Part shown: one piece after another, positions 1,361 to 64,000 of the stretch
Layout of the letters: every line of letters starts with the position of its first letter
Numbering within the stretch: position 1 is the first letter of the stretch
From: Candidatus Omnitrophota bacterium
GTDB taxonomy: Bacteria > Omnitrophota > Gorgyraeia > Zapsychrales > Zapsychraceae
NCBI GenBank assembly: GCA_015233195.1
Contig: JADFYE010000007.1
Coordinates: 8,684-72,683, forward strand
Reading direction: 5' to 3'
DNA length: 64,000 nt
The notes under the pieces: generated by a model
Database searches by the model: none
The model's input: only the letters and a program-made list of their open reading frames with translations
Told to the model about the DNA's origin: nothing
Made by a program: the position numbers and the translations under genes

Positions 1361-1529
1361 CTGGAAAGTCATTCATATGTTTAGAATTCATAAGAAATTA
1401 GTTATAGCATAAGTATTTGATTTTGGAAAGTAACCGTTTACTTCAAACCCTACTTTCCCCCTTATTTTAGGTAAATATATAATTTATACTTTATATGTAG
1501 TGTTGAATAGTTTTGAAGGGGGTAAAAAG

Positions 1530-4500
1530 ATGGGGCAAGTTTTTAAAAAATTCATATGTTGTTTAACACTAGTTATGTTTATATTTACTAGTGTTACTCC
1601 GTCTTATGGTCAAAGCGTGTTGAGCGTTCCTGCGCCAACTACTTTAGTTCAGCTTAGTCAGCCGTTTAATCCTCCAATGCTTACAGGTATCAAGGTTCAC
1701 ACAGACAACCCGTTTAGATTTGAGTTTATTTTGGACGCAGGAAATAATAATGATAAAAATAGCGTAGGGGCACGATACTTCGTGCCCGAATCAGCAGATA
1801 TAAAACAAGAAGCTAATCGCTTGATTAAATATTTCCTCGCCTCACTTACTGTCCCTGAAAAAGATTTATGGGTTAACTTATCGCCTTATGAAAAAGACCG
1901 CATTGTGCCGGAAGCGTTTGGTAAGACTGAAATGGGACGAGACCTTTTGGCACAGGATTATTTATTGAAACAACTTACAGCATCGCTTATGTATCCGGAA
2001 GGGGAGATTGGGCGAAAATTTTGGGATAGAATTTATGCAGAAGCTGCTCAAAAATTCGGTACTACTGATATACCAGTTGATACATTTAACAAAGTCTGGA
2101 TTGTGCCGGAAAAAGCAGTGGTGTATGAAAATGCTGAAGCTGGTACGGCATACGTTGTTGAGAGTCATTTGAAGGTGATGACGGAGAAAGATTATAAAGT
2201 CATTCCTTCGCGTACCGCTCAGGATGACAACACCAATAAAATTATAAAATCAGTCATTATTCCCGCGCTTGAACGCGAGGTTAACACCGGCAAGAATTTT
2301 GCCCAGCTTCGCCAAGTCTATAACTCACTCATCCTCGCTACTTGGTATAAAAAGAAAATTAAAGAAAGTATTCTCTCCCAGGTGTATGTAAACAAAAATA
2401 AAGTCGTAGGCGTAAATATAGACGATACCAAAGCCGCAGAAAAAATCTGGGCACAATACGTCGAGACTTTTAAAAAAGGCGCGTACAATTACATTAAAGA
2501 AGAATATGATCCGGTTAATCAAAAAATCATTCCTAAAAAATATTTTTCCGGCGGGTTTACAGCTTTGAATTTAGACGAGGCAATGATAATAGAATCAAAA
2601 GAAGTCCCGTATGATCCCGATGATCCCAATAATCACAACCAATTACAAAAAATAATTATGGATTTGCTTCCGCGCGATACGCCGCCGTTTACGCCTCTAG
2701 CAAGTGTTACTCCAGTGTCAATTAAATCTATACCGCCAATTCACGCACTGGAGCCGATTCCAGCAACCAATCCTTATGCAGGGGCGGTCGTGGTATCAAA
2801 CATAGAACAAGCAATTAAAAACGAAACACCAAATGTTGTTAATTTTACTCCTCAAGTCACGCCTAAAACAAAAAAAGATAAGTTAAATGAAAAATTAGAG
2901 GCATTGCTTGGGATATCCGCTAATGAAAAGCTTAGAAGTTTTATTAGTGACATGCTAAACGAATTATCTTGGGCGGATAATTTTGATTCATTTCTTATTT
3001 CGCAATCAAAATTATTAAGGAATTTACTTTTAGAGATTGGTTTTACATTTTTCGATTTACCTTTAACTCAAAGGCTTCTGGCGTTGGTGATTGAGTGGGC
3101 AATTAATTTAGGAGAAATTAATATTGATCAAATAAATTGGTTTGATGGTTTTTACACCACAAAACCAGTTTTTGCAATTGCAACTACAGCTTTGTCTGGT
3201 TTAGGTGACATAACCAAAATTGACATGGTCATACAAGGGATAAATCAGGAGCTCGAAAAATTGGGAATAAAAGGAGCTAAATTTAAAGTGTTAGCTTTAA
3301 TAAAAGATAAAAGCAGGATTGATATTTTTAAAGACAAACTTCTTGAGATGAAGTCTTTAAACGTTACCTTTGAATTTGTTGAGGATATTATACCTGAAAA
3401 CTCGCCGTTACTGGCTGATGTAGACGCGTTGATCGCGCTGGTTGAGCCGGTAACAACATTTGTAAAATTTGATGAACATCGCTCTCATGCCAGGTCTTCG
3501 CCACTTTTATGCTGGACAATAAATGAATATGATAAGGATATTAATCCTAATACTCGAGACACAGCGTTTAATTTCACAAATTTAAATACTGGATTTGATA
3601 GCCGTAGTATAGGTTTTTTTATTAATCCTTTCGCTGTAGGTTTGTATAACCAAAATTTAGGATTAAATGTAGAAGGTAGAATACAACAAAAAGAGGAACT
3701 TTTACGTCAATCTCTCAGTGAGATCGGGAATAAAATTAACGTACAGCCAATTAATGTAGAGGAGAAAGCCGCACAAGCGGCTGCGACAACTTGGGGATTT
3801 GTTTATATGCATAGGGACGGAGGGCAATATTTGAGGAATTTATTCCAGTATTTTTCAGAACAAAATATTACGGTATTTACTTTTTTTGGGGCTAACAATA
3901 GGTGGGAAAAAGATATAGATGAATTTGTAAAGTTTAAAGTCATAGTAGACGCCTATCGTTTACCAATTGAGATTTATGATTTAAGCGCAGATCCTAACCA
4001 AATTAAGACGATCGATTTTTCAAAACCAGTAATCCGGGTTATCAATTTAGGGGTACGAGATTTGACGACTAATATTCGTTTTATGGCTGCTTCTGATTTA
4101 CCAGTTGGAGTAACCGGAGATGAGAGCTTTGCCGCCGCAGCAACATTGAGGCTGCCATTTGTTTATGAAATGGCTCCTTGGAAATGGGAGTTAGCTTACA
4201 ACATTTCGCAATGGATGCGCCGTATTAATGGAGAACAAGGTAAGGCAAGTAAATTACTTTGGAATTTTATTATTAGGGAGACAGATAGCGCTGAACAGGA
4301 TTTTTTATGGGGCAACTCTCCTAAAAAATATGATGAATTTAAAAGGTTTGGAGATTTTGTGGAAAGCCGACCGCTTTATCCTGATTTGGTTCGGAAAATG
4401 TTAAGGACCTTAGCTTTTTTGCATTTAATGCAGGATAGACAAAACAAGGGTGTTCCTGCAAGTAAAAAAGCATTAGTCGGGGCTTATAATTTTTGGACAA

Positions 4501-7004
4501 AATGTCGGGATTTCTTAAGGCAGACCTTTCAAAGCGGGGATGAAAAATTAAAAAGCTATAAAGTTTATTTAGATTCAGAAAATGATCAGGCGATGCTGCA
4601 ACAAAATAGTGCTAAATTTCTTAGTGAAGCAGACCAGAAAATGTTGGGTGATTTTATTTTGAAGGCTAATGATGGGCGTAGATACAAGTTATTTTTTTAT
4701 AAAAAGCCGAGCAGTGAGGGAAGCTATAAAATTATTATTCGTGAAATTGATCAGAAAGATCAGGTGATTAGAGGACGAAGGAAAGCTGGATATATAGTGA
4801 TATTTCCATTTAATGAAAAAGGCTATAGAAACAGGAATGGTTTTTTTCAATTAATTATCGAAAGATTTGTTTTATTTCAAAAATCACAACAGGGAAAAAG
4901 AATTAGTAGTTCATTTTTGGAAAATTTGCCAAAAGGAACATCATTGCGAGGGAAAAATATCATCAATGAGGCTACGATAGATCAAATGAAAGATGAAGTT
5001 TTTGCTAAATTAAAAGCTACTGCTTCAGATGATGAACTTGTGCGCCTTGAAGAAAACGAACGTTATATTAATAGGGGAAGCGGGAGAGGTAGGGTTGAAA
5101 GTACAGTTCGTTTTTTTATGAATTATCAAGAGGATAAAAAGGTTGATCTTCATTTAAGTGAGATTTTCAGAAATACTCCAATAGGGAAATCATTGGGTTA
5201 TGGCGGTTTTGAAATATCGGATGTGGTAATTGGGGAACAATATATGGGTAGCTTCTATGTGGCTGAATTATCGTACATTGCTCTTAAACCAGTTGATCAG
5301 GCGATGAATCAACAAGAGATCATAATTAATGAAGAGCTTTCAGTAAAAACATCAGATGTTTTTAATGTGCGTTTAAAAGATAATCCTCAAGAAGGAATTC
5401 TGCAGCCGGCAACAGTTGATCGTCGGGAATTTTTAAAAACTGCTGTGGGACTTGCGGCTATTATGGCTTTGCCGGGCTTTTTAAGAGCGGCAGAACCTAA
5501 AAAGAATTTATTACCTGCCGGAAAAAGCGAACCAACCCTTGCTAAGGCGCGGCAGATTGTTTTAGATCATTTAACTGATATTCTTCACTCAGGTAAAATG
5601 TGGACCAATATTCCTTCAACAGAATATTGGCAGGATAATGTTTTTAAAGGCGATAAAACAATGTATTTGTTTGCAATGGACGATATTGAAATTGCGCTGA
5701 AAGCGGGGTTAAAGCCGTATAATGCAGGAGAAAGTTTGAATGCAAAAGAATTCGCCCGGTTAGCCATTCAGGCGATAAAGGAACAGACTGTTGAAGAAAA
5801 ATTAGATAAGTTTTTTTCAGGCAGTTGGTCGAGATATATGGTTGCCTTAGCGAATAACAGTGAAAATATAGAAATTTATGCGGAAGTTATCCGTCAAAGA
5901 GCTAAAGATATAGATCCGATTTTGGGCGCATTGGTTGCTCAATTGGCAGATAATACCAAGGATTGGCAGGTCAAAGATATAGAAAATGTATGGCAAAAAT
6001 TTAATGATTCATTTTTAATACCAAAAGGATATTATGCCAGCGTTTCATCAGCAACGAATAATCTTAAACATCACAAGTTTTATTTCGCGCTAATTTATAA
6101 GATTGAATCCCGGGAGCAGACAGCTTTATCTTCTGGAAGAAAAATCGAAGTGTTGATAGCGCGAAGGCTTGATATTGTTAATTTTGCGGGAAGCCTAGGG
6201 CATACGCAAAAAGGGTTTGACCGGATATTTATTGATTTAGATTCTATCGATTATCAGATAAAAACATTGGCAGGTTATTCTAGAAAAGATTTAGTATCTG
6301 ACGGTGAGAAAGTTTCAGAGAAAGATTTAATTAGTATTGAAAGCTGGGTAAGACAATTCAATAGCAGAGAGAATTTAAAACAATTAATTGTTGATGATAC
6401 CAAAATGCATGAATTGGCGCATAAGCAGTATGATGATCTGAAGAAAAATTTGACAAAAGGTTTTGGCATATATCAATCGAATTTTGATAATCTTCGTGCG
6501 CGAGATCCTCAAGGCACTGATATTATTCAATCTGAAATTTATGCATATCTGACTGAAATCAAGAATGGGAATTTGCCGGGCTTGTCAATTTTTATCCTAT
6601 GGCGAAGTTTTATGAAGCAAGTCCCGACAGCGGAATTTTTTGCCGGATGTTTTATTTTAAATCAATTAACAGGCGATGAGCTGAACCCTAAAAACGGAAT
6701 GCAGCATGTTTTTGAGAGGGTGGCTGAGCTTTTGAATATGCCTAAAATAGAAATTTCAAAAAAAGCAGAAAAAGTGTTACAAGAATTTTTCGCTGATAAG
6801 GCGATGAACATAAGCGATCACACCGGTGGTATTGATTTCACTGCTGATAAGACGCCTTTGGAAATTAAAAATATAGGTAAAGATATCAAATTCAATATAG
6901 ACGCTGCAATGCTGCAGAAACTCCAAAATACTACAGGGTTTGAGCCATTAATAATTGACATCCAGCCAATGACAGATCTAAAAGCTTTTTTGGAATTGAA
7001 ATAG
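1530..7004 (+). CDS. Giant exported modular protein, paralog 1 (~1824 aa), function unknown
   Basis: Long ORF (track 1500-7004). The ATG at 1530 follows gaagggggt (SD) and opens a signal peptide, MGQVFKKFICCLTLVMFIFTSVTPSYGQ. The N-terminal ~350 aa are shared with 21252-28415 and 61639->64000. Confidence 0.85.
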   Translation: MGQVFKKFICCLTLVMFIFTSVTPSYGQSVLSVPAPTTLVQLSQPFNPPMLTGIKVHTDNPFRFEFILDAGNNNDKNSVGARYFVPESADIKQEANRLIKYFLASLTVPEKDLWVNLSPYEKDRIVPEAFGKTEMGRDLLAQDYLLKQLTASLMYPEGEIGRKFWDRIYAEAAQKFGTTDIPVDTFNKVWIVPEKAVVYENAEAGTAYVVESHLKVMTEKDYKVIPSRTAQDDNTNKIIKSVIIPALEREVNTGKNFAQLRQVYNSLILATWYKKKIKESILSQVYVNKNKVVGVNIDDTKAAEKIWAQYVETFKKGAYNYIKEEYDPVNQKIIPKKYFSGGFTALNLDEAMIIESKEVPYDPDDPNNHNQLQKIIMDLLPRDTPPFTPLASVTPVSIKSIPPIHALEPIPATNPYAGAVVVSNIEQAIKNETPNVVNFTPQVTPKTKKDKLNEKLEALLGISANEKLRSFISDMLNELSWADNFDSFLISQSKLLRNLLLEIGFTFFDLPLTQRLLALVIEWAINLGEINIDQINWFDGFYTTKPVFAIATTALSGLGDITKIDMVIQGINQELEKLGIKGAKFKVLALIKDKSRIDIFKDKLLEMKSLNVTFEFVEDIIPENSPLLADVDALIALVEPVTTFVKFDEHRSHARSSPLLCWTINEYDKDINPNTRDTAFNFTNLNTGFDSRSIGFFINPFAVGLYNQNLGLNVEGRIQQKEELLRQSLSEIGNKINVQPINVEEKAAQAAATTWGFVYMHRDGGQYLRNLFQYFSEQNITVFTFFGANNRWEKDIDEFVKFKVIVDAYRLPIEIYDLSADPNQIKTIDFSKPVIRVINLGVRDLTTNIRFMAASDLPVGVTGDESFAAAATLRLPFVYEMAPWKWELAYNISQWMRRINGEQGKASKLLWNFIIRETDSAEQDFLWGNSPKKYDEFKRFGDFVESRPLYPDLVRKMLRTLAFLHLMQDRQNKGVPASKKALVGAYNFWTKCRDFLRQTFQSGDEKLKSYKVYLDSENDQAMLQQNSAKFLSEADQKMLGDFILKANDGRRYKLFFYKKPSSEGSYKIIIREIDQKDQVIRGRRKAGYIVIFPFNEKGYRNRNGFFQLIIERFVLFQKSQQGKRISSSFLENLPKGTSLRGKNIINEATIDQMKDEVFAKLKATASDDELVRLEENERYINRGSGRGRVESTVRFFMNYQEDKKVDLHLSEIFRNTPIGKSLGYGGFEISDVVIGEQYMGSFYVAELSYIALKPVDQAMNQQEIIINEELSVKTSDVFNVRLKDNPQEGILQPATVDRREFLKTAVGLAAIMALPGFLRAAEPKKNLLPAGKSEPTLAKARQIVLDHLTDILHSGKMWTNIPSTEYWQDNVFKGDKTMYLFAMDDIEIALKAGLKPYNAGESLNAKEFARLAIQAIKEQTVEEKLDKFFSGSWSRYMVALANNSENIEIYAEVIRQRAKDIDPILGALVAQLADNTKDWQVKDIENVWQKFNDSFLIPKGYYASVSSATNNLKHHKFYFALIYKIESREQTALSSGRKIEVLIARRLDIVNFAGSLGHTQKGFDRIFIDLDSIDYQIKTLAGYSRKDLVSDGEKVSEKDLISIESWVRQFNSRENLKQLIVDDTKMHELAHKQYDDLKKNLTKGFGIYQSNFDNLRARDPQGTDIIQSEIYAYLTEIKNGNLPGLSIFILWRSFMKQVPTAEFFAGCFILNQLTGDELNPKNGMQHVFERVAELLNMPKIEISKKAEKVLQEFFADKAMNISDHTGGIDFTADKTPLEIKNIGKDIKFNIDAAMLQKLQNTTGFEPLIIDIQPMTDLKAFLELK
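1764..1789 (+). repeat. GTAG-headed hairpin repeat, family A, inside the paralog 1 CDS (in frame, encodes VGARYFVPE)
   Basis: gtaggggcacgatacttcgtgcccga has stem GGGCACGA/TCGTGCCC. It matches the reverse complement of 61754-61779 at 25 of 26 nt. The paralogs lack ~10 aa at this position. Confidence 0.8.
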
Positions 7005-8800: not shown

Positions 8801-8923
8801 GAGACTTTTGCAAAACGCCTATCTGCTACGTTATTCGTTCGTTCGCTTGTGCGATGTACTGACGACGTACATCTCCGCACTTACTCGCGAATGCCTTGCA
8901 TCTAGACATTTTTCAACAGTCTC
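8801..8923. repeat. Long imperfect hairpin repeat, family D, copy 2 (~123 nt)
   Basis: gagacttttgcaaaacgcctatctgctacgttattcg...cgaatgccttgcatctagacatttttcaacagtctc. Paired positions differ from copy 1 by compensatory changes: attcC/Ggaat versus attcG/Cgaat, and gccCa/tGggc versus gccTa/tAgac. Confidence 0.8.
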
Positions 8924-8931
8924 TTGTATAA

Positions 8932-21033: not shown

Positions 21034-21251
21034 TTTTTTCCACTTATTTCTCCCCCCATTTTCTTCATTTTTTCATTTCTCGTCGGTAATATATAATATA
21101 TAATATTTTAGGTAAACGGTTTCTCTGTAACCCCTTGCAGCCCTTGTTTTTTGGAAGTTTTGTGGCATATTTGGGGTAGATTTATAAAGGAGGGGCAAGT
21201 CCCTTTATAACGGAAAAGATATATTTGATAAATTATTTAAAGGAGAACGTT

Positions 21252-24200
21252 ATGTTCCGATCTATTTATTTTAAGTCTTGCGCGATTACAGTGTTGATCG
21301 CGTTTCTTATGACAACCGTGTTTCAGACGACAGGCTTTGCCCAAGTGGCAATGTATATGCCTGCGGTTGGCACACAAGTAATGCCCTCAGCATTTTATGA
21401 ACCAGCTAGTGCAGTGGGTATGCAGGTTGATCCTGTAAATCCGTTTCACTTCAATTTCTTCATTGACCGCGGTCAAGACCCGTTAGCCGGTGAAATTGAA
21501 AAGACTGAATATAAAAAATTAGTTAAATATTTTTTAGCCGCATTGACCATCCCTGATAAAAACCAATGGGTCAACCTTTCGCCTTATGAACATAACCGTA
21601 TAGTGCCAACTGATTTCGGTGATACTGAAATGGGTCGCGATCTTTTAGCCCAAGATTATCTTTTAAAACAGTTAACTTCTTCACTTATGTATCCTGAAAA
21701 AGAAATCGGCAAGGTATTTTGGGATAAAATTTACGAAAAAGTCTACGCTAAATACGGACAGAATGCAGAAGTGCCGGTTAATACTTTTAATAAAGTTTGG
21801 ATTACTCCGGATAAAGCGGTTGTGTATGAAGACGGTGATAAAGTTTGGATTATGGAAAGCCATTTGAAGATTATGTTAGAGCAGGATTATATGGCTTTAG
21901 ATAAAAATAAAGACAATTCCCGTTTTGGTTTATCAGCTAATAACAATACTAATTTAAGTGAAACCAGCACTGCCTCGTCTCAAATTGTGCGCGAGATCAT
22001 TGTACCTGCGATTGAAAAGGAAGTTAATACAGGGAAAAATTTTGCTTTATTGCGTCAAGTTTATAAGTCTATGATTCTTTCTGCTTGGTTTAAGAAAAGA
22101 CTTAAAGATCATTTATTATCTCAAGTATATAAAGATAAAGATAAAGTTATAGGCGTGAATTTAGATGATAAACAAGCTAATGAAAAGATTTATCAGCAAT
22201 ATATAGAGTCTTTTAAGACTGGTGTGTTTGACTATATTAAGGAAGAGTACGACCCTGCAAGTCAGACAGTTATTCCTCGTAAATATTTCGCGGGTGGGGG
22301 CGATTTTGCTATGTTAACTACGGATATAGTGAATGTTGTAACTCCGCGATCAGCAACTCCTGCGCAAAGAGCAACATTCGCAGAAGCAGTTAAAGGACTT
22401 GATGGTCGTATAGATATATTAAGTGCTTTGTTTACGGAAAATGATCGGGAGGCTATTGCTGCTACTGCTAAATACAAAAAAGCTCTTGAGACAGTACAGG
22501 CAGTATTGCCTCCTGAAGTGATAGCACATTTAAAGCAGTCGATTATAGATCAGTTAGCAGCAGAGGATGTAAATTTTTCAGAACGCCAAAATGCCATTGA
22601 AGCTGCATTGGTTTTAGCTGTAGCACAGTGGATAGATTTAAATAATAGCTTACACCGTAAAGATGTTGTAGTTATGGATAAGAACGGTAAATTAGCAGTG
22701 GTATCGACTGAGGTGTTATTTAAAAATACACCAGCAGAAATTAATATTGATGAATTAACTAGTTTGGTAATGGGCGGTATCAGATTTTACGCGCATTACG
22801 GTGATGCCGGACTAGCATTAGCTAATAATATAAATTTTGTGTCTGCTATCCAAGCTATGAATCGGGTAGAAGAAAGAGTTATAAGATTAGAAAAAGAGAC
22901 TGATTTGAGTAAATCCGAGGTCTTAATAAGTCAGTTGGAAGATCATTACGACTTGTTTAGGAAGTATTCGGATTTGGTTGTAAAAAATCAGGAACAAGTT
23001 GAAAATGCTTTTGCTGGAAATAAGCAAGTTATTTATCAGTCTGTAACAATAAGGCAGATGTTTAGGAGTTTTGAAAATAATAAATATGATTTAGGCAGAC
23101 GTTCGGGAAAATTATTTCAAAGAATTGATGCTTATAAAAGAACTGCTAAATCAACGTCTAGAACTTCAACAGCTTCGTCTACTACTGGAACTGATGAACG
23201 TACTGCTGAACAAAAAGCTATGGACGCTTGGACGGTAGCTATCTCGCCGATCTTAGATTCTAAAGAGACGGTAACTCCTGAAAAATTAAATCAATTGGCA
23301 GCTCAGATTGCAGATATGGTTTGGGCGCAATTAACACCAGATCAGCAAACTCAATTACCACGACCAGAATTAGAAGGTAAATTAGCAGCTGCTTTAGGAC
23401 AAGTTTTAGATGAATACCAAGCAAAACCAGAGCAGAAGGCTGAAGTAACTGATCTGAAAGTTTTAATACAAAAACTTATTAGTATTTTATTCCCGCAAAA
23501 AGAGTCTGAACCTGCAACTAAACCAGCGGTAAAGGTAGTTGATCTAATAAAGAAGTTGAGTGGATTCGCTAAAGCTGGAAATATGGATGAAAGTGACGTT
23601 CAGTTATTTTTAGGTTTGTTGGATCAGGAAACGTTTATCAGCCTATTCAATAAATATCAGGCGTCTGCAATATATGATGCAATAAAATTTGTAATGAAAA
23701 ATTTGCCTCAAGTGCCAGATGAGGAATTAGTTAAAGCTATTGTTGCAGCAATTAAAACAAAAATAGAACCTGCAGGTAAATCAGAAGAAGAATTAGCTGC
23801 AGAAAAAGCTGCAGAGCAAGCCGCCGCCGCAGCTCAAGCAGTTAAACCAAAGTTAGGAATATGGGGAAAACTAAAAGCTGCAGTAAGAAATGGATATGCG
23901 AATTGGGCAGCAGGAAGACAAGCTAAAGCCGAATTAAGAATGCAAGTTAAAGCCGCAACAGTTACCTGGAAAGAAGTTGCTAGAACCTACCACTTAGATT
24001 ATAAATTTGAATCAGGAACAGCTGGAGATAAATGGGTAGACCAGTTAATGGTTCTTTCTGAAATTCAAAAAAGTGGAGTATCTCGAACAGATCTGTTGGA
24101 AGTTGTAAAAATTACGCTGAATGACGAGTTTATGAAGAACAGGAATAATCTTGAAGGGTCATTCTTATATATTTATAACGAAATTTTGCTAAACATAAAA

Positions 24201-27200
24201 TATTCTATATTACGTGAAAAGGTGTTTTTACAATATTCTGAAGTAATTAATGATTCAGCAGAAAATAAGGTTGAAGCTGTAGCGGATAATATTATTGAAA
24301 CTTTTAAATCTATAGGGTCTAGTCTAGAAATTAATAAACAAATATTAATCGATAACATTAAAGCTAATATTGCTGAACAACAAAATACGATTAAATCAAT
24401 TCCTGAAAATCAGTATGATGCTGTCTATAATCAAGGGTTTGCGGAGTTGGTACGACCGTTGATAGAAGCAGACGCTGCTATGGTTGTAGAAGCAGACGAA
24501 ATGACTGATCTGTTGGTTGCACTTGAACAAAGAGGGATTGTAGCTGATGAGAAAACAATCGCGGAAATTGTTGCAAATATGCCAGAAGTTGATGAACAGC
24601 TAAAAGATTATATTGGTACTGATATTTTGGCTGGTTGGACTATTATTGCTTTAATAAATGGACAAAAAGAAAGTCCGAAACCCGCTGTAACTCCTAAGCC
24701 AGCAGAGGTAGCACCTTCAGCTCGTAGTTTAGTAGAAGGCAGGATAAACAAATTAGTTGGTCAAGAGAGGGTAGATGTATTTTTTGGTTATTTGAGTCAG
24801 CAACCAACGTATAATCTCATATCAGACCACAATTATTCGGAAAATGAAATAAAAGAAGTGATACAAGCGTTACTTACAGCAGGAAAAGAAGTGACCGTGG
24901 TTGGTGTTGTAATGCAACTTATAAGAAACCGACAAGCGCTTATACCAGAGCAATTTAAAGCATTTGTTAATGGTATAGAACAATTAATACCAAACCAATA
25001 TGTAAATCGTAGTGCTTTATTAAATGATTTTTTTGATACTAAAATAAGTCCTCAAAATAAGGAAATGTTAGATCAGCTTTGGGCGGCTTTTGCTGCAGAA
25101 CCTGAAGGACAACAAATGGGTCTTACTCCTGAGGAGGCTAAGGATGCGGTAATAAAAATATTGCTTGATCCTACTAAAACAAAAGATTTTGAAGAAATGT
25201 TAATTAATTTTAATAAATTTCATAGCGAGGTTTTTGCTGCTGCAAAAGCAGAGAGAGCTAAATTACCTCAGAAGTCAGAAAAGTTAAATCAACTTATTGA
25301 TAATTTTTTAGCTCAAACCAAGAGCGTAAAAGATTTTATAAAAGACAATCAGACTTTATGGAATGATTTTATAAACGAGCTTAAAAATTATTATCAGGGA
25401 TCACCGGTGCTGGATATAAAAACGGCTTCTGATGTTGTAGAATACATTTTGGATATGGATTCTGCACCAGCGAGGTTTAAGGAGGATTTTCCAGCGTTTT
25501 TTGAAGCGTTTTTAAAACAATTAAAAGAGGGTGTTCCTGCTGTAAAAGCGGCACGTACACCAGAAGAAGTTTTTACTCAAGGAATGGAAGATTTATTAAT
25601 AGCTGTTCAAGCGGTAGAAAAAGATAGACCAGGAAACGGAGTAATAGTTATAACAGCTTCTAGAGTGAAGAACTTTTTACCGTACTATATGTTAACTGAT
25701 GATAATGTGTCAACTGCAGTGGTTGCTTTAAGGAAGTTCTTTACGGCAAATAAAGCTAAAGCTAAAGCTGACGAGCTGGAAAAGATAAAAGATTTAAAGT
25801 TTTTTAGTTTATTGGGAAAATTTGATAAATCAGAAGTTGATGTACAAAAACAAAATACTGTAAATGTGGTTATAAACGCAATAATATCGAGAATGGAAGT
25901 AATTGATATAGTTGCCCAAAAGGAAAAGTGGGAAACTAAAGATATAATAAGTGAAAGATTGCGTTCAAAAGATCAAGTATTGTCAAAGTCTGCTGGAGTA
26001 GAATTAATAAACCAGATAATGACCTATATTCAAGAAAAAGGTATGCAGCTTACAGAGCAAGAGGTGATTGATGCAATAAAAAGTATTTTTACTTCTGCAG
26101 AAACTACAGAAATGGAAGGCTTTAAGACTAATTATTTAGAATTTTATAAATTAGTGGCTCAACAAGCTATGAAAGACGCGGCCATGATTGTTGTTCCAGA
26201 AAATGTCACAGAGATTATAAGTCTTCTTCGTCAATTATGGGATGGTACAAATATTAATCCTTCCGACCAAGACATTAAGGATGTTTTGGAAAGTATGACA
26301 ATGCCTGCTGGTCTAACGCAGGATAATGATGTTATTGTTGGTATGCTGGCGAATATGTTTTTACAAGCTCAGGAAGCAGGAAATCAACCTGCTGGACAGC
26401 CATCATTATCAAATGATTTAGATGGTTTACAACGCTCTGTAAATGCAAATTCTAAGACTTGGAAAGAAAGAATGGCGCAAGTTGGGCGGTGGGCATTAGG
26501 AGCTACAGGGTTAGGAATGGTTGTGGCAGCGGTTTTAGGTGCAATTGGGTTTTTTAAAAACGTACAACCAGTTGCTCCGGAGGCTGAGAAGCCAGCGGCA
26601 GAGCGCACATTTGATGTTAGTAGATCAAATGCATTAAAAGGTGCAATAAAAGATGGATTGACAGGAAATAACGCAAAAAAAGCAGTTCTTGATTCTTTGA
26701 AAGATAGATATGCAGAATCAGGCACAGCATTTCAGCCGGCAAAGGTAGATGCTAAGGCTCAAGGAATCGCAGATGCTCAATTTGATATTTTACATGCTCG
26801 CAATAGCGATCCAATGTTAGGCAAAAGCTATACTGATGTAGATGGAAAAAAACATGAAGGGCGTAATGCATTCAAAACATTTTTGAGAGACGCTAAGGCG
26901 TCGGGATTTTTTGCTAATATAACGGAAGCTTTTTGGGATGGTATTAATGGGTTAAATGAGGATCAACAGAAAGAATTTTTAGCTGAAATGGCAGCTATTC
27001 AAGGTCAGGTAAAAGAATTATCAGACGGCTTGATAAAAACTTTTGGCGCAGAGCTCGCAGCTTTGCAAGCAGAAGGTCCAAATAAAGAAAATCAGCAGAG
27101 GATACAGGGTCTGAAAGATAGTATCGCTTCATTAAAAGAAAAAAATGATGAAAGTCCAGATGCGATTGTTGGCAAATCTTCAGAGTATTGGCTTACATTA

Positions 27201-28415
27201 AATCGCTTAAAAGAACTTGCAGAGATTTCTAATAAAATGGGAGTTGTAGCAAATATCACTACAGAAGCTTTAGTTCAAGCTGAAGACGCTGGAACAACAA
27301 AAAGTAGTCCTGGTAAAGCAGTGATTTTTTCAAGAGTTTTTGAGGAGGGAACCACCAGCCCTGCAAAAACAGCCGCGGGTAACGCTACAATAGTATATGA
27401 CACACAAGTTCAAGTGGCTAACAATGGTGCGCCGTCTGCATATAAGTATGTTGCAGGGGCAGGTCAAAGATTAAAGGGAGTATTTAATTCCGTAACAGGC
27501 GCAACTTATTCTTTATTGGATAAAGGCGGGAAGGTTGTTACAGGCATGGGCAAAGGATTAAAAACTCTTGCAGGGGTAAAACAAACTACAGCTGGACCAG
27601 TTACTCCAGAAGTCAGTGCTAGGTTGAATGCTTCTTCTAAGTGGATGAAAGCACTTTTAGCTCAAGCAAGGATTGATATTAATGAAAATAATTTTGCTAA
27701 TGTGGCTTTAGCTGATGCAGTACGGGACAGACCCGAACCTGTAAATGTAGGTAGAACAAATCCTTACGGTATAACGGATGCTGATGTTACCAGATTATTA
27801 ATGGCAGTAGGTTATATGCCGGATCAAGGATTGACTCTCGATGATATGGAAGCTATTGTGCATAATGGCAGTGATGAAGATGCAAGATCTCTTTATGAAA
27901 TTGTTTTTGGTGCGCATGTGGTTTTAGCGGGTAATAGCCTTAAGGTTGTTGAGTCTTTTGGAGAGCAGGGAGCAGTTACATTTGAAACACCTGATATAGT
28001 TGCTGTAGGTAGAGGACTAGTTTTTAGAGAAATTTCTAACCCTGGAAAGTCAAAGAAAGAAATACAGAAAAGAGTTGGTGCGATAACGCCAGCCCAGGTG
28101 AGAGACGCTTTATTGGAGGCTATAAAGGAAGAAAGGGCAAAGCGACCAGCAGATAGAGCTATGTTTATCTTTGGTGAGGAAATTAGTTTTTATCCGCAAG
28201 ATGATCCAGTCGGTGGTATCGACATGGATTCAGCAATGTTGAACTTGCAGATTAAACGCGATCCTAATGGCGTACCATTGCCAATGAATTTCCAGGATCC
28301 GGCAATGATGCAGAATTTAAAAGGTTTGATGCCGGTTATTATGGATATAACTAATATGCCGTCGAGTATGCTGCCGAATTTATCAGCAGCAGGTACAGCG
28401 CCGAATCAGGCATAA
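21252..28415 (+). CDS. Giant exported modular protein, paralog 2 (~2387 aa), function unknown
   Basis: The ATG at 21252 follows aaaggag. The signal peptide is MFRSIYFKSCAITVLIAFLMTTVFQTTGFAQ. It shares the N-module with paralogs 1 and 3 and the C-terminal tail with paralog 1. Confidence 0.85.
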   Translation: MFRSIYFKSCAITVLIAFLMTTVFQTTGFAQVAMYMPAVGTQVMPSAFYEPASAVGMQVDPVNPFHFNFFIDRGQDPLAGEIEKTEYKKLVKYFLAALTIPDKNQWVNLSPYEHNRIVPTDFGDTEMGRDLLAQDYLLKQLTSSLMYPEKEIGKVFWDKIYEKVYAKYGQNAEVPVNTFNKVWITPDKAVVYEDGDKVWIMESHLKIMLEQDYMALDKNKDNSRFGLSANNNTNLSETSTASSQIVREIIVPAIEKEVNTGKNFALLRQVYKSMILSAWFKKRLKDHLLSQVYKDKDKVIGVNLDDKQANEKIYQQYIESFKTGVFDYIKEEYDPASQTVIPRKYFAGGGDFAMLTTDIVNVVTPRSATPAQRATFAEAVKGLDGRIDILSALFTENDREAIAATAKYKKALETVQAVLPPEVIAHLKQSIIDQLAAEDVNFSERQNAIEAALVLAVAQWIDLNNSLHRKDVVVMDKNGKLAVVSTEVLFKNTPAEINIDELTSLVMGGIRFYAHYGDAGLALANNINFVSAIQAMNRVEERVIRLEKETDLSKSEVLISQLEDHYDLFRKYSDLVVKNQEQVENAFAGNKQVIYQSVTIRQMFRSFENNKYDLGRRSGKLFQRIDAYKRTAKSTSRTSTASSTTGTDERTAEQKAMDAWTVAISPILDSKETVTPEKLNQLAAQIADMVWAQLTPDQQTQLPRPELEGKLAAALGQVLDEYQAKPEQKAEVTDLKVLIQKLISILFPQKESEPATKPAVKVVDLIKKLSGFAKAGNMDESDVQLFLGLLDQETFISLFNKYQASAIYDAIKFVMKNLPQVPDEELVKAIVAAIKTKIEPAGKSEEELAAEKAAEQAAAAAQAVKPKLGIWGKLKAAVRNGYANWAAGRQAKAELRMQVKAATVTWKEVARTYHLDYKFESGTAGDKWVDQLMVLSEIQKSGVSRTDLLEVVKITLNDEFMKNRNNLEGSFLYIYNEILLNIKYSILREKVFLQYSEVINDSAENKVEAVADNIIETFKSIGSSLEINKQILIDNIKANIAEQQNTIKSIPENQYDAVYNQGFAELVRPLIEADAAMVVEADEMTDLLVALEQRGIVADEKTIAEIVANMPEVDEQLKDYIGTDILAGWTIIALINGQKESPKPAVTPKPAEVAPSARSLVEGRINKLVGQERVDVFFGYLSQQPTYNLISDHNYSENEIKEVIQALLTAGKEVTVVGVVMQLIRNRQALIPEQFKAFVNGIEQLIPNQYVNRSALLNDFFDTKISPQNKEMLDQLWAAFAAEPEGQQMGLTPEEAKDAVIKILLDPTKTKDFEEMLINFNKFHSEVFAAAKAERAKLPQKSEKLNQLIDNFLAQTKSVKDFIKDNQTLWNDFINELKNYYQGSPVLDIKTASDVVEYILDMDSAPARFKEDFPAFFEAFLKQLKEGVPAVKAARTPEEVFTQGMEDLLIAVQAVEKDRPGNGVIVITASRVKNFLPYYMLTDDNVSTAVVALRKFFTANKAKAKADELEKIKDLKFFSLLGKFDKSEVDVQKQNTVNVVINAIISRMEVIDIVAQKEKWETKDIISERLRSKDQVLSKSAGVELINQIMTYIQEKGMQLTEQEVIDAIKSIFTSAETTEMEGFKTNYLEFYKLVAQQAMKDAAMIVVPENVTEIISLLRQLWDGTNINPSDQDIKDVLESMTMPAGLTQDNDVIVGMLANMFLQAQEAGNQPAGQPSLSNDLDGLQRSVNANSKTWKERMAQVGRWALGATGLGMVVAAVLGAIGFFKNVQPVAPEAEKPAAERTFDVSRSNALKGAIKDGLTGNNAKKAVLDSLKDRYAESGTAFQPAKVDAKAQGIADAQFDILHARNSDPMLGKSYTDVDGKKHEGRNAFKTFLRDAKASGFFANITEAFWDGINGLNEDQQKEFLAEMAAIQGQVKELSDGLIKTFGAELAALQAEGPNKENQQRIQGLKDSIASLKEKNDESPDAIVGKSSEYWLTLNRLKELAEISNKMGVVANITTEALVQAEDAGTTKSSPGKAVIFSRVFEEGTTSPAKTAAGNATIVYDTQVQVANNGAPSAYKYVAGAGQRLKGVFNSVTGATYSLLDKGGKVVTGMGKGLKTLAGVKQTTAGPVTPEVSARLNASSKWMKALLAQARIDINENNFANVALADAVRDRPEPVNVGRTNPYGITDADVTRLLMAVGYMPDQGLTLDDMEAIVHNGSDEDARSLYEIVFGAHVVLAGNSLKVVESFGEQGAVTFETPDIVAVGRGLVFREISNPGKSKKEIQKRVGAITPAQVRDALLEAIKEERAKRPADRAMFIFGEEISFYPQDDPVGGIDMDSAMLNLQIKRDPNGVPLPMNFQDPAMMQNLKGLMPVIMDITNMPSSMLPNLSAAGTAPNQA

Positions 28416-30967: not shown

Positions 30968-31006
30968 CCCTTCTCCCGCCTCTGGGGAGAAGGTTAGGAT
31001 GAGGGG
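30968..31006 (+). repeat. Hairpin + G-rich tail repeat, family C, copy 1
   Basis: cccttctccc-gcctct-ggggagaagg-ttaggatgagggg. Confidence 0.8.
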
Positions 31007-31081: not shown

Positions 31082-31119
31082 CCCCTCACCCTGCCCTCTC
31101 CCCAGAGGCTGGAGAGGGG
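31082..31119 (-). repeat. Family C repeat, copy 2 (inverted relative to copy 1)
   Basis: cccctcaccctgccctctccccagaggctggagagggg. Its reverse complement aligns with copy 1. The two copies bracket a 75-nt AT-rich core. Confidence 0.8.
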
Positions 31120-38132: not shown

Positions 38133-38140
38133 GGAAAATG

Positions 38141-38171
38141 TTGTAAAACGCCCATCTGCGGCGTTATTCTC
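38141..38171. repeat. Truncated copy of family D repeat (5' arm only)
   Basis: ttgtaaaacgcccatctgcggcgttattctc matches 29 of 31 nt of the 5' arm of copy 1. Confidence 0.7.
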
Positions 38172-38210
38172 TATTTTCGATAATTTAATGGGGGGAGTTG
38201 CGAACTTTAT

Positions 38211-47350: not shown

Positions 47351-47388
47351 CCCTCTCCAGCCTTTGGGGAGAGGGTTAGGGTGAGGGG
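47351..47388 (+). repeat. Family C repeat, copy 3
   Basis: ccctctccagcctttggggagagggttagggtgagggg. Confidence 0.8.
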
Positions 47389-52975: not shown

Positions 52976-53012
52976 CCCTCTCCAGCCTTTGGGGAGAGGG
53001 TAGGGTGAGGGG
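52976..53012 (+). repeat. Family C repeat, copy 4 (its G-rich tail ends 6 nt before the purD ATG)
   Basis: ccctctccagcctttggggagagggtagggtgagggg. Confidence 0.8.
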
Positions 53013-61638: not shown

Positions 61639-64000
61639 ATGGCGCATCAGCAGAATTTTTTTATTAACCGGGGTGTATTATTTATTGTATTAGTTACTTT
61701 TTTTGTAACTAATATTATGCCGGTTTCGTATGCCCAGACTGTTATGCCGGTTATCGGGCACGAATTATCGTGCCCCTACAAATCTACCGTTTTTACACCA
61801 GTCTTGATTAAAGGCGTGACTGTTTATCCTAAAGAACCTTTGCGTTTTAACTTTATCGTCGATTCTGGCACATCAAAAGACGCGGATGATGCTATTAAAA
61901 AACAAGCGCAAAAAATGGTGAATTATTTTTTGGCTGCATTAACTGTTCCGCAAAAGGATTTATGGGTCAATCTTTCTCCGAATGAACCAGATAGAATAAT
62001 TCCGCAAGAATTAAGCAAAACTAATTTAGGCGTTGATCTTTTAGCGCAGGATTATTTGTTAAAACAATTAACTGCCTCGCTCCTGGATCCTGATGGAGAA
62101 GCAGGACGAAAGTTTTGGGAAGCGATATATGCGAAAGTATATGCATTACACCTTCCCCCCAACAAAAGTACGGGGGTGGGGAAGGGTAGGGAAGGGGGGA
62201 AAGATTTTGATATTCCAGCCGATATTTTTAACAAAGTCTGGATCGTACCGGAGAGCGCAACGATATACGAAAATGGCAATGGTTCGACAAGCTCACCAGG
62301 GGCTACGGTTTATATCGTCGAAAGTCGACTGAAAGTAATGACTGATGTTGACTATTCTGAACACCTTCCCCCCAACAAAAGTACGGGGGTGGGGAAGGGT
62401 AGGGTAGGGGGGATCACAGCAGATATAATAAAACAAATTATACTCCCTGAAATCGAACGTGAAGTTAATGAAGGCGAGGGATTTGCTCAGCTTCGCCAAA
62501 TCTATCACGCCTTGATTCTCGCTAAATGGTATAAAGAAACAGTCCGCAATAGTATTCTATCGCAAGTGTACGTTGATAAAAATAAAACTTCCGGCGCAGG
62601 TAATGTGGATCCTCGAGCTAAAGAGCAAATTTACCAGGAGTATTTGGCTGCTTTTAAAAAAGGAGCATTCGCGAAAATCAAAGAAGAATACGACCCGCAA
62701 GAGCAGAAAATCATTCCCAGGAAATATTTTTCAGGCGGATTTACTGACGATGGACAAATGAAAATGAAACTTGCAGATCAAGCCGCGCTAACAAAAATTC
62801 ATACGGGGCGCACATTTCAAATGCCGGTTAAACTTAATCCAGAAACAGACCGCGCCTCATTAGCCGAAGAAAAAGACTGCAAGGAAGCTTTAAAATGGAA
62901 GAGAGCAGTTCCGGGAATTAAATTTTGGACGGCAGATCAGATCGTTCAGAAGAGTAAAGAAGCACTTAAACGGAAGCCAGTAAATCTTGGTTTTTTAGAG
63001 GCCAGTATTCTTATGTTAGATGAAGAGGACAAGAGGAGAGTTTTGCGTGAAATGCCGAAGTATGGACATGATCTCATTTTAACAGGACGAATGCTGGATT
63101 TGGCTAGTCGAAGGACTATGTTTGATGATGATCAAAAATATAGATTTTTTAAGTCATTTTTGGTTTTTGATGAGATGTGGTCAAAGGTCAAATCTATAAA
63201 AGGTATGACGGGCAGATTTGAATTTCTTTTTCCTAAGTCGGTCAAATATTATGCTCACAATTATGATGGAATTAAATCAGCGGATAAATTTTTAGCCATT
63301 GCTAAAAAAATAAAACTTTGGGGACACGGGTTTGGTAATTTTCATATGAGTGAGGCTGCTTATCATGGGGGTTATACGTTAGATCATCAATGGGCGATGC
63401 TTGAGGTAATGTTGACCCGGTGGGAAAGAGGAGCATTTGAAGTGTTTAAAGATTTTGGTTCATTTTTATCAACAGAAGGATACGGTCCGTATTTTATGAT
63501 TGACCGGAATCATAGTAGGAAGAATGTTTCGTTGGAACAATTAAATCAAGAAGCTTTATTTGTTGTGCCGCTGGGTTTGGACCTGGAATTTTTCCGTCAG
63601 GGATTATTGGTTGCAGTTGAGAAAAATTTGATCTCCCGTGAAAAAGCAGTGGATGTGTATACCCGTATTGTGACGATGAAGGAAGTGGTGGATTATGAAA
63701 CAAAAGCGGATGCTCGCGCCATGTTCACGCCTGAGTGGCATAGTAAGAGGAATATTGATAAGCCGGTTAAAGTAAATTCAAAAATAGATCGCGCCATGAT
63801 AATTGATGATGAGGATATGATACATCTTCAAGAAAAATATAAGAGAATGACCGCGCTTGTAAAAGTGTTTGGCGAATATCTCCCTGAAACCTACACAGGT
63901 CAGAAAATAAGAGTGGCTGAACTCCTATATAAAATGGAAAAAGAGATGCCGGAGCTGATTAAGAAATTATCAATGTCGGCTGATCTTAAAGGTGAGATAT
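61639..64000 (+). CDS. Giant exported modular protein, paralog 3 (first ~787 aa; continues beyond the right edge; absent from the ORF track)
   Basis: I translated frame 1 by hand from the ATG at 61639 and found no stop to position 64000. The signal peptide is MAHQQNFFINRGVLFIVLVTFFVTNIMPVSYAQ. It shares the N-module with paralogs 1 and 2 (LWVNLSPNEPDRIIP, DLLAQDYLLKQLTASL, FNKVWIVPE, EREVNEGEGFAQLRQIY, IKEEYDPQEQKIIPRKYFSGGF). Confidence 0.85.
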   Translation, partial: MAHQQNFFINRGVLFIVLVTFFVTNIMPVSYAQTVMPVIGHELSCPYKSTVFTPVLIKGVTVYPKEPLRFNFIVDSGTSKDADDAIKKQAQKMVNYFLAALTVPQKDLWVNLSPNEPDRIIPQELSKTNLGVDLLAQDYLLKQLTASLLDPDGEAGRKFWEAIYAKVYALHLPPNKSTGVGKGREGGKDFDIPADIFNKVWIVPESATIYENGNGSTSSPGATVYIVESRLKVMTDVDYSEHLPPNKSTGVGKGRVGGITADIIKQIILPEIEREVNEGEGFAQLRQIYHALILAKWYKETVRNSILSQVYVDKNKTSGAGNVDPRAKEQIYQEYLAAFKKGAFAKIKEEYDPQEQKIIPRKYFSGGFTDDGQMKMKLADQAALTKIHTGRTFQMPVKLNPETDRASLAEEKDCKEALKWKRAVPGIKFWTADQIVQKSKEALKRKPVNLGFLEASILMLDEEDKRRVLREMPKYGHDLILTGRMLDLASRRTMFDDDQKYRFFKSFLVFDEMWSKVKSIKGMTGRFEFLFPKSVKYYAHNYDGIKSADKFLAIAKKIKLWGHGFGNFHMSEAAYHGGYTLDHQWAMLEVMLTRWERGAFEVFKDFGSFLSTEGYGPYFMIDRNHSRKNVSLEQLNQEALFVVPLGLDLEFFRQGLLVAVEKNLISREKAVDVYTRIVTMKEVVDYETKADARAMFTPEWHSKRNIDKPVKVNSKIDRAMIIDDEDMIHLQEKYKRMTALVKVFGEYLPETYTGQKIRVAELLYKMEKEMPELIKKLSMSADLKGEI
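61754..61779 (-). repeat. GTAG-headed hairpin, family A, inverted orientation, inside the paralog 3 CDS (encodes IGHELSCPY)
   Basis: The reverse complement of tcgggcacgaattatcgtgcccctac is gtaggggcacgataattcgtgcccga, which matches 1764-1789 at 25 of 26 nt. Confidence 0.8.
62149..62199 (+). repeat. 51-nt hairpin + G-rich tail repeat, family E, copy 1, in frame in paralog 3 (HLPPNKSTGVGKGREGG)
   Basis: caccttccccccaacaaaagtacgggggtggggaagggtagggaagggggg, stem CCTTCCCC/GGGGAAGG. Confidence 0.85.
62362..62412 (+). repeat. Family E, copy 2, in frame in paralog 3 (HLPPNKSTGVGKGRVGG)
   Basis: It is identical to copy 1 except for one nt (a/t), lies 213 nt downstream, and is in the same codon phase. 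Confidence 0.85.

Follow-up and report, generated by a model that had tools for sequence, protein, structure and literature searches.

Two nearly identical 51-nt segments lie in the same reading frame of a secreted-protein gene of Candidatus Omnitrophota, in a stretch of 64,000 nt (assembly GCA_015233195.1, contig JADFYE010000007.1, positions 8,684 to 72,683) that we call the window. We interpret them as a short interspersed repeat of the intrastrand-triplex type, a kind known under the names BoxC, PIT and TM, that has been copied into two sites of this one gene, and we put the probability of this reading at roughly three in four. The host gene is referred to below as paralogue 3; two further genes of the window, paralogues 1 and 2, share its N-terminal module.

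Both the triplex-motif kind of repeat and the in-frame colonisation of open reading frames (ORFs) by small palindromic repeats are already known. What is new is the combination of a triplex-motif repeat in coding sequence, in Omnitrophota, and in loops that other repeats have also used. The finding joins two separate literatures, one on the intergenic BoxC/PIT/TM repeats and the other on the translated loops made by Rickettsia palindromic elements (RPEs) and intragenic repetitive extragenic palindromes (REPs).

The two 51-nt copies

The 51-mer CACCTTCCCCCCAACAAAAGTACGGGGGTGGGGAAGGGTAGGG(A/T)AGGGGGG occurs exactly twice in the window, both times on the + strand (Table 1), and a search for it with W at position 44 found no match in 100 dinucleotide-preserving shuffles. 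The copies are identical at 50 of their 51 nt. Their sole difference, an A in one and a T in the other, is non-synonymous (GAA/Glu vs GTA/Val), and both translate to HLPPNKSTGVGKGR(E/V)GG. They begin 510 and 723 nt from the ATG, both multiples of 3, so that each makes up 17 whole codons in phase 0, and the distance between them is 213 nt, their orientation and frame being the same. The exact search and the ORF offsets agree with the initial annotation, which had reported two 51-nt copies, one nt apart in sequence, 17 codons long and in one codon phase.

A repeat finder (in which the pair is family D10) reports a shared stretch of 53 nt, that is, one extra A per side, and beyond this single A the flanks of the two copies are unrelated; because the similarity ends at 53 nt, it was a discrete unit that was copied and not a longer segment. 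The element has a G+C content of 64.7% vs 38.9% in the remainder of the gene. Five of the six reading frames of the 51-nt unit are open, the closed one containing the TAG of GGGTAGGG. An Rfam scan of the full window returned two tRNAs only, with nothing at the elements.

These properties bear on two other accounts of the pair. The first is that a 17-residue, Gly/Lys/Pro-rich and positively charged loop motif was duplicated under selection on the peptide, its DNA structure being incidental; the common frame and orientation, the position of both copies on loops and the non-synonymous (E/V) nature of the only difference would all be in keeping with this. However, copies that match at 50 of 51 nt have zero synonymous divergence, their boundaries are sharp and their flanks unrelated, they stand out from the gene at 65% vs 39% GC, and the motif is absent from 120 homologues and both paralogues (below). 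Peptide selection would, moreover, not yield a three-arm DNA design in common with non-coding repeats of the window, and we regard this account as very improbable. The second is an assembly or sequencing artefact that misplaced a repeat twice in a metagenome-assembled contig. G-rich structured repeats are indeed hard to sequence, and the sequence is found in no other sample, but both copies are 51 nt long, codon-aligned, stop-free and within an otherwise conserved domain. A misassembly would not twice respect the frame and choose length-tolerant loops, and the copies differ by one base, so we give this account almost no credence.

Table 1. Coordinates of the 51-nt copies, their arms and loops, the host gene, the intergenic family C elements and the loop repeats of homologous genes. 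Positions are those of the window, except for L148 to L152, where they are those of the homologue contigs.
Feature	Coordinates	Strand	Remarks
Copy 1	62149..62199	+	17 codons = HLPPNKSTGVGKGREGG, residues 171-187; loop between IYAKVYA and FNKVW
Copy 1, pyrimidine (C-rich) arm CCTTCCCC	62151..62158	+	triplex-motif finder
Copy 1, loop 1	62159-62177	+	19 nt
Copy 1, first purine arm GGGGAAGG	62178..62185	+	folding and triplex-motif finder
Copy 1, loop 2 (GTAG)	62186-62189	+	4 nt
Copy 1, second purine arm GGAAGGGG	62190..62197	+	predicted third strand; mirrors first purine arm
Copy 2	62362..62412	+	17 codons = HLPPNKSTGVGKGRVGG, residues 242-258; variable linker before the EREVN block
Copy 2, arms	62364-62371, 62391-62398, 62403-62410	+	triplex-motif finder
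Host gene (paralogue 3)	61639..64000	+	ATG at 61639; ORF intact, running off the window end
Family C element, CCCTCTCC-loop-GGAGAGGG-TTA-GGGTGAGG	47351..47386	+	BoxC/TMECO-like, type A second loop
Family C element	52976..53010	+	intergenic; an ORF starts 9 nt downstream, at 53019
Family C element, stem variant CTTCTCCC/GGGAGAAG	30970..31005	+	intergenic; inverted pair with 31084-31118
Family C element	31084..31118	-	intergenic; inverted-pair partner of 30970-31005
In-frame loop repeats, homologue contig L148	1984-2103, 2167-2400		
In-frame loop repeat, homologue contig L149	10649-10801		
In-frame loop repeat, homologue contig L150	10604-10816		
In-frame loop repeat, homologue contig L151	1487-1624		
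In-frame loop repeat, homologue contig L152	8754-8987		

Three-arm architecture

Each copy consists of three arms. A pyrimidine arm, CCTTCCCC, comes first; GGGGAAGG is the purine arm that pairs with it in Watson-Crick fashion; and a second purine arm, GGAAGGGG, mirrors the first purine arm and could lie antiparallel on it through G·G and A·A contacts. Read outward from the turn, the purine arms form a mirror repeat, with GGGGAAGGG on one side of TA and GGGAAGGGG on the other. The initial annotation had described the element as a hairpin with a GTAGGG-rich tail, of which the stem is indeed present, while the tail proves to be a mirror image of the purine arm and not a mere extension.

We looked for this arrangement with a finder of our own that applies the published class II rules, with 8-nt stems, G·G-C, A·A-T or T·A-T triads, a first loop of at most 25 nt and a second of at most 6 nt. 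It returned exactly six perfect 8-triad motifs in the window, namely the four intergenic family C repeats and the two ORF copies, as expected from the earlier suggestion that the ORF copies are of the same design as family C. No such motif was found in 20 shuffles of the whole window, and none in 20000 composition-matched shuffles of the 51-mer. Both ORF copies thus have the three blocks of a class II motif, with 8 perfect triads and GGAAGGGG or GGTAGGGG as the third arm. At the A-to-T difference between them, which is in the second purine arm, the base faces an A of the first purine arm, and the purine-motif rules permit A or T there. Loop 2 is within the published range, at 4 nt (GTAG), or at 2 nt (TA) with one unpaired triad; loop 1 is longer than the rules for short loops allow, at 19 nt, or 11 nt counting two C-G pairs across a T bulge.

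The same strand also fits the pattern of a G-quadruplex (G4), which asks for four or more runs of at least three G, 1-7 nt apart: the five G-tracts GGGGG-T-GGGG-AA-GGG-TA-GGG-AA-GGGGGG fit (G3+ N1-7)x4. The element might therefore act as a hairpin/G4 switch rather than as a triplex, with a G4 in the displaced DNA strand or in the mRNA competing against the C-arm hairpin, and could in this way modulate transcription or translation. Because the coding strand is the G-rich one, the mRNA contains the motif, and since purine-motif triplexes cannot form in RNA (PMC4666352), a structure at the RNA level would be a hairpin or a G4; a conserved G4-hairpin-duplex switch has been proposed for E. coli (PMC5100583). 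On the other hand, the E. coli consensus with its C arm (TMECO) forms a stable class II triplex and not a G4 in vitro, as judged by circular dichroism and nuclear magnetic resonance (PMC4666352). A G4 also leaves unaccounted for both the mirroring of the purine arm by the tail and the A/T interruptions that lie opposite A in most related elements. Such a switch is compatible with insertion and competes with a triplex only over the structure that is formed; we consider it unlikely.

Intergenic family C repeats and their relationship to E. coli BoxC

The TM or TMECO motifs, formerly known as BoxC and PIT elements, have the form CCCTCNCCC N3-6 GGGNGAGGG N3 GGGNGAGGG (Holder et al. 2015, NAR, PMC4666352). 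A 61-nt query around 47351, the first family C element of Table 1, matches 5410 of 5426 complete E. coli genomes, at a median of 17 places in each and at no annotated feature. It aligns to the E. coli gabT-gabP spacer CCCCTCGCCCCTCTGGGGAGAGGGTTAGGGTGAGGGG, which is of the same type as the "type A mm" entries in Table 1 of PMC4666352. At the sequence level, then, the family C elements are members of the BoxC/TM family; if the stems are taken as 8 nt, the first loop has 9 nt.

The family C repeats of the window are almost base for base those of E. coli BoxC/TMECO (GGGGAGAGGGTTAGGGTGAGGGG), which means that E. coli shares this kind of element with an uncultivated lineage of Omnitrophota. The start of the next gene lies 9 nt downstream of one of the four copies and 58 nt downstream of another.

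Insertion sites in paralogue 3

We aligned the 120 best database matches with the three window proteins (123 sequences in all). At site 1, between IYAKVYA and FNKVW, 119 of the 123 sequences have 23 residues where paralogue 3 has 39, an excess of 16 residues over the family mode and of 15 over paralogue 2; the "15 extra residues" given for this site in the initial annotation are thus correct with paralogue 2 as the reference. At site 2, between LKVMT and EREVN, the linker varies from 38 to 96 residues in the family and is 47 residues long in paralogue 3. Neither the 17-residue peptide nor parts of it were found in the 120 homologues, and neither segment is present in paralogues 1 and 2. Conservation of the 17 residues in distant homologues, the observation that had been named in advance as speaking against an insertion, was looked for and not found. 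Judged by this alignment, the two 51-nt segments are insertions relative to the family.

An AlphaFold2 model built on a 53-sequence alignment (mean pLDDT 71.7, pTM 0.67) places insert 1 (171-187) in coil (172-193), flanked by helices 154-171 and 194-198. Insert 2 (242-258) is modelled mostly as coil with one short helical turn, between helices 236-242 and 258-278. Averaged over 10-residue blocks, pLDDT is 54-76 within the inserts, compared with about 90 for the helices and strands that come after each insert. Both inserts are therefore predicted to lie in permissive surface loops, and the largely coiled inserts of the model, together with the 120 homologues and two paralogues, uphold the view that both sites are loops at which the relatives lack this sequence.

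Repeats in the same loops of Omnitrophota homologues

The same two loops carry other, unrelated structured repeats in some homologues (Table 1). In P0081 a perfect hairpin (z = -4.1) accounts for a 17-residue insertion at site 1, and site 2 holds a long palindrome. The site 2 linker of P0019 contains, on the opposite strand, a perfect class II triplex motif, the sole one in the 76 kb of other Omnitrophota DNA examined. The linker of P0034 contains a GTAG...CTAC hairpin pair (z = -7.0), and P0100 and P0020 have other long palindromes. These five homologues were picked for their repeat-like peptides and hence speak to recurrence but not to frequency; in many homologues the linker is an ordinary one that contains a conserved motif.

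It is possible that the two loops are recurrent landing pads for unrelated structured repeats, among them triplex motifs on either strand, GTAG/CTAC hairpin pairs and long palindromes, and that triplex-motif repeats are translated more generally; we put this forward tentatively, as the less probable state of affairs. If it were true, selfish or structure-prone DNA would regularly supply surface-loop sequence to a large and fast-diversifying protein family in a probably host-dependent phylum.

Related triplex-type elements in other bacteria

Purine arms of the form GGGGAAGGGTAGGG(A/T)AGGGG were found in metagenome-assembled genomes (MAGs) of Hydrogenophilaceae, Alphaproteobacteria, Clostridia, Chloroflexota and others. 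A genome-collection scan with the purine arms gave 27 matches, none from Omnitrophota; many of the purine-arm matches follow CCCTTCCCC and a short loop. In one Hydrogenophilaceae MAG the elements lie on three contigs and are thus multi-copy. With the gapped pattern CCTTCCCC N4-30 GGGGAAGGGTAGGG, the metagenome contigs among the matches listed span 30-72% GC, and 65 of the 116 distinct matches listed have two A/T bases after the fixed pattern, usually followed by 4-5 G. This continuation is, by its sequence, a mirror arm. The second loop in related elements is TA, TTA or CA.

The variable second loop bears on the possibility that the 51-nt unit is a REP-type GTAG palindrome, mobilised by a REP-associated tyrosine transposase (RAYT) of the IS200/IS605 family, with the G-rich extension as its tail. 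The canonical REP layout is a 5'-GTAG followed by a hairpin. In the ORF copies GTAG does directly adjoin the stem (GGGGAAGG-GTAG-GG), intragenic REPs are known (PMC3733652), and a GTAG...CTAC pair is present in the P0034 linker. A REP, however, requires a terminal GTAG (PMC3733652), whereas here GTAG is internal, 3' of the stem, and is followed by a 10-nt purine arm. It also arises trivially from GG-GTA-GGG and, because the second loop of related elements may be TA, TTA or CA, is not conserved across the design. We therefore consider mobilisation as a REP improbable, and the internal GTAG and the variable second loop of related elements rule out membership in the REP class itself.

Where GC is low enough for open frames to be meaningful, the metagenome triplex-type elements lie mostly outside ORFs; in high-GC metagenome contigs long open frames often arise spuriously, and calls within ORFs cannot be relied on there. 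Four in-frame candidates were scanned against Pfam, and only one of them, L038, has domains flanking the element on both sides, which makes it an independent precedent for a triplex-type element in frame in a real gene. It encodes a HemW-like protein (element at about 1600-1640, minus strand), with Radical_SAM at residues 18-189, the element TLPLLKGKGRDGVA at 315-328 and HemN_C at 346-408. This element is read in the same frame as the ORF copies and gives TLPLLKGKGRDG; the shared pattern is LP...GKGR[D/E]G. In the other three, L051 (an amidase), L098 (ImuB-like) and L113 (a DUF6798 membrane protein), the element is in frame with a Pfam domain on one side only.

Seven high-GC metagenome contigs (L033, L046, L063, L089, L109, L123 and L138) contain a full palindrome, CCCCCACCCTACCCTTCCCC-loop-GGGGAAGGGTAGGGTGGGGG. 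In these the third arm is paired with its own complement, which makes a 20-bp hairpin with a triplex motif on both strands.

Origin and persistence of the copies

If the segments are a triplex-type repeat, one DNA strand would fold back twice through C-G·G, T-A·A and T-A·T triads, and the element would have been copied to two places 213 nt apart in this secreted-protein gene. Formation of the triplex has been demonstrated for the E. coli consensus only, in vitro, and the ORF element may form one as well. The copies are probably recent. One was probably made from the other in a local event, given that the 64 kb contain no third copy and that two independent long-range insertions 213 nt apart are unlikely. 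The copying may have taken place on single-stranded DNA.

It is the + strand that carries the G-rich arms, and in transcription this strand is the coding, non-template one. GC skew of this strand is uniformly positive across the window, at +0.21 (0.15-0.28 per 8 kb), and most of the long ORFs listed in the window are on it, which suggests that the window is inside one replichore and that its genes are co-oriented with replication. Given this skew, the + strand is probably also the lagging-strand template, and the triplex-forming strand would then be the one that is most often single-stranded.

Both copies can persist, we suggest, because the unit is a multiple of three nt long and stop-free in five of six frames, and because both sites are length-tolerant surface loops. 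The Pro/Gly/Lys-rich 17-mer would then be a by-product of the DNA element and not a selected protein motif. For annotation this means that GC-rich, Gly/Pro/Lys-rich "low-complexity" loops of MAG proteins can be inserted DNA repeats. A near-identical, sharply bounded pair, as the likely product of a recent copying event, is a good substrate for asking how units that consist only of the motif are copied.

Evidence that weighs against a triplex-type repeat

Several observations count against this interpretation. There is no other copy of the exact 51-mer, intergenic or otherwise, in the 64-kb window; an exact search of the metagenome collection with the loop 20-mer CCCCAACAAAAGTACGGGGG gave no matches and hence no sister copies; and the 51-mer is without a blastn match in the 5426 complete E. 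coli genomes. The collections scanned apparently do not contain the window's own genome, as protein matches are at most 52% identical and the genome scan had no Omnitrophota match. With both known copies in one gene, the 51-mer can count only as a putative interspersed family of its own genome. The flanks have no target-site duplication beyond 1 nt (the single A), and there is no evidence of a transposase, the ORFs of the window not having been scanned for Y1 transposases. There is also no orthologue in the databases, hence no empty site that would allow a comparison of presence and absence.

At site 2, the linker without its insert would be 30 residues long, and the minimum in the other 122 sequences is 38. 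Because the insert-free linker undercuts all of them, the event at this site may not have been a simple insertion, and some sequence may have been replaced.

With regard to structure, the 19-nt loop 1 is outside the defining ranges and would weaken a triplex. The ITxF rules call for a stem of 6-15 nt with at most one mismatch and loops of 1-6 nt, TMECO having loops of 3-6 and 3 nt (PMC4666352), and the range of Hoyne et al. 2000, as cited in PMC4666352, is 0-10 nt. Hairpin energy is no better than that of shuffled sequences (z = -2.0 and -0.6 as RNA, about -0.7 as DNA). Any shuffle of C-runs and G-runs pairs well, and we therefore dropped hairpin energy as evidence; the three-arm test took its place because the ordered arrangement, and not the energy, is exceptional. 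ViennaRNA in any case folds the Watson-Crick hairpin only, triplexes being outside its model. Finally, the lengths of the G-runs in arm and tail covary weakly among the metagenome matches listed (Spearman 0.19, Fisher p = 0.025).

Host gene and genome context

The paralogue 3 ORF has 787 codons from its ATG and is still open where the window stops. It comprises an N-terminal signal or transmembrane helix and a module of about 370 aa, followed by a C-terminal region. The module is also present in paralogue 1 (1500-7004) and paralogue 2 (21225-28415), with 44% and 39% identity, respectively, and is carried by at least 550 database proteins; the named sources among the listed module matches are mostly Candidatus Omnitrophica/Omnitrophota MAGs. 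The best matches to the N-terminal module are no more than 52% identical to paralogue 3, and the two best matches on long contigs, P0003 and P0026, are not syntenic with the window. Pfam has no domain in any of the three paralogues, and a Foldseek comparison of the domain model with the PDB found nothing at E <= 0.001. In a collection of 5.8 billion proteins, no homologue of the C-terminal 373 aa of paralogue 3 (62881-63999) reached E <= 0.001, and by this measure the C-terminal region within the window is an orphan.

In the window the module regions are at 61639-62750, 1500-2600 and 21225-22330, each with a signal or transmembrane helix. Across proteins the module is joined to differing C-terminal parts (NUDIX, ankyrin, HEAT, adenylate kinase, epimerase, HAD), and to judge from this variety it has the look of a common module for export or anchoring whose cargo can be exchanged.

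The window contains another repeat family, of about 120 nt, with long copies at 1240-1362 and 8803-8924 that are 78-83% identical and a 34-nt piece at 38139-38172 (94%). The long copies are just upstream of ORFs (paralogue 1 at 1500 and an ORF at 8932), and the family has no Rfam match.

Comparison with known repeat systems

Among the known small repeats, RPEs are a parallel for the manner of insertion. They are elements of about 100-150 bp that form families in Rickettsia and have CGTC ends (Ogata et al., as summarised in PMC10969869 and PMC3733652). As in paralogue 3, a small structured repeat is inserted in frame, the ORF remains intact, and the peptide is a fold-compatible by-product. The ORF copies resemble RPEs in exactly this respect, with the insertion in frame, the host ORF intact and the position predicted by the model to be structurally permissive. 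The analogy with RPEs drawn in the initial annotation is hence apt (in frame, stop-free, a length of 3n, a permissive loop), and intragenic REPs are a precedent as well (PMC3733652). RPEs, however, are simple palindromes without a mirror purine arm, present in dozens per genome, whereas here a triplex design occurs in two copies in one gene. The unit of 51 nt, the lack of CGTC in the element and the Omnitrophota host rule out membership of the RPEs, and by this analogy the relation to them is one of mechanism only and not of family. That the family is a different one, as initially annotated, is thus right as to size, tag and architecture, with the proviso that this kind of repeat had itself already been described (PMC4666352).

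Intragenic REPs of 20-40 bp, tagged with GTAG or CGTC, have been described from several phyla, where they lie wholly inside ORFs that encode known proteins (Di Nocera et al. 2013, PMC3733652). Different REPs are found at about the same site in orthologous recB genes of Xanthomonas (PMC3733652), which is like the recurrent use of the same loop sites by different repeats in the Omnitrophota family. GTAG REPs are associated with RAYTs and have a terminal tag; the ORF copies, by contrast, carry GTAG internally, at the opposite side of the stem, and have a mirror arm in addition. [quoted passage not shown] With flanks that share a single A per side and the internal stem as the only inverted repeat, the element is ruled out as a MITE.

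The BoxC/PIT/TM elements share with the ORF copies the C-rich arm, the complementary purine arm, the short second loop and the mirror purine arm of class II, and in both cases the unit is little more than the motif. E. coli MG1655 has 23 TMECO copies, which are "always located intergenically" (PMC4666352), and the TM motif is without transposase association and is statistically tied to local genomic instability (PMC4666352). The family C pair at 30970 and 31118 recalls the inverted pairs reported for E. coli TM elements. Unlike TMECO, with its CCCTCNCCC/GGGNGAGGG stem, the ORF copies have a CCTTCCCC/GGGGAAGG stem; their loop 1 is 19 nt vs 3-6 nt; and they are inside coding sequence, in a phylum that is absent from those named in the text of PMC4666352. 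The different stem and the lack of an E. coli blastn match rule out the 51-mer as a member of the TMECO or E. coli BoxC sequence family itself. From its arms and loops, the ORF element is best described as a putative long-loop variant of a triplex-motif subfamily.

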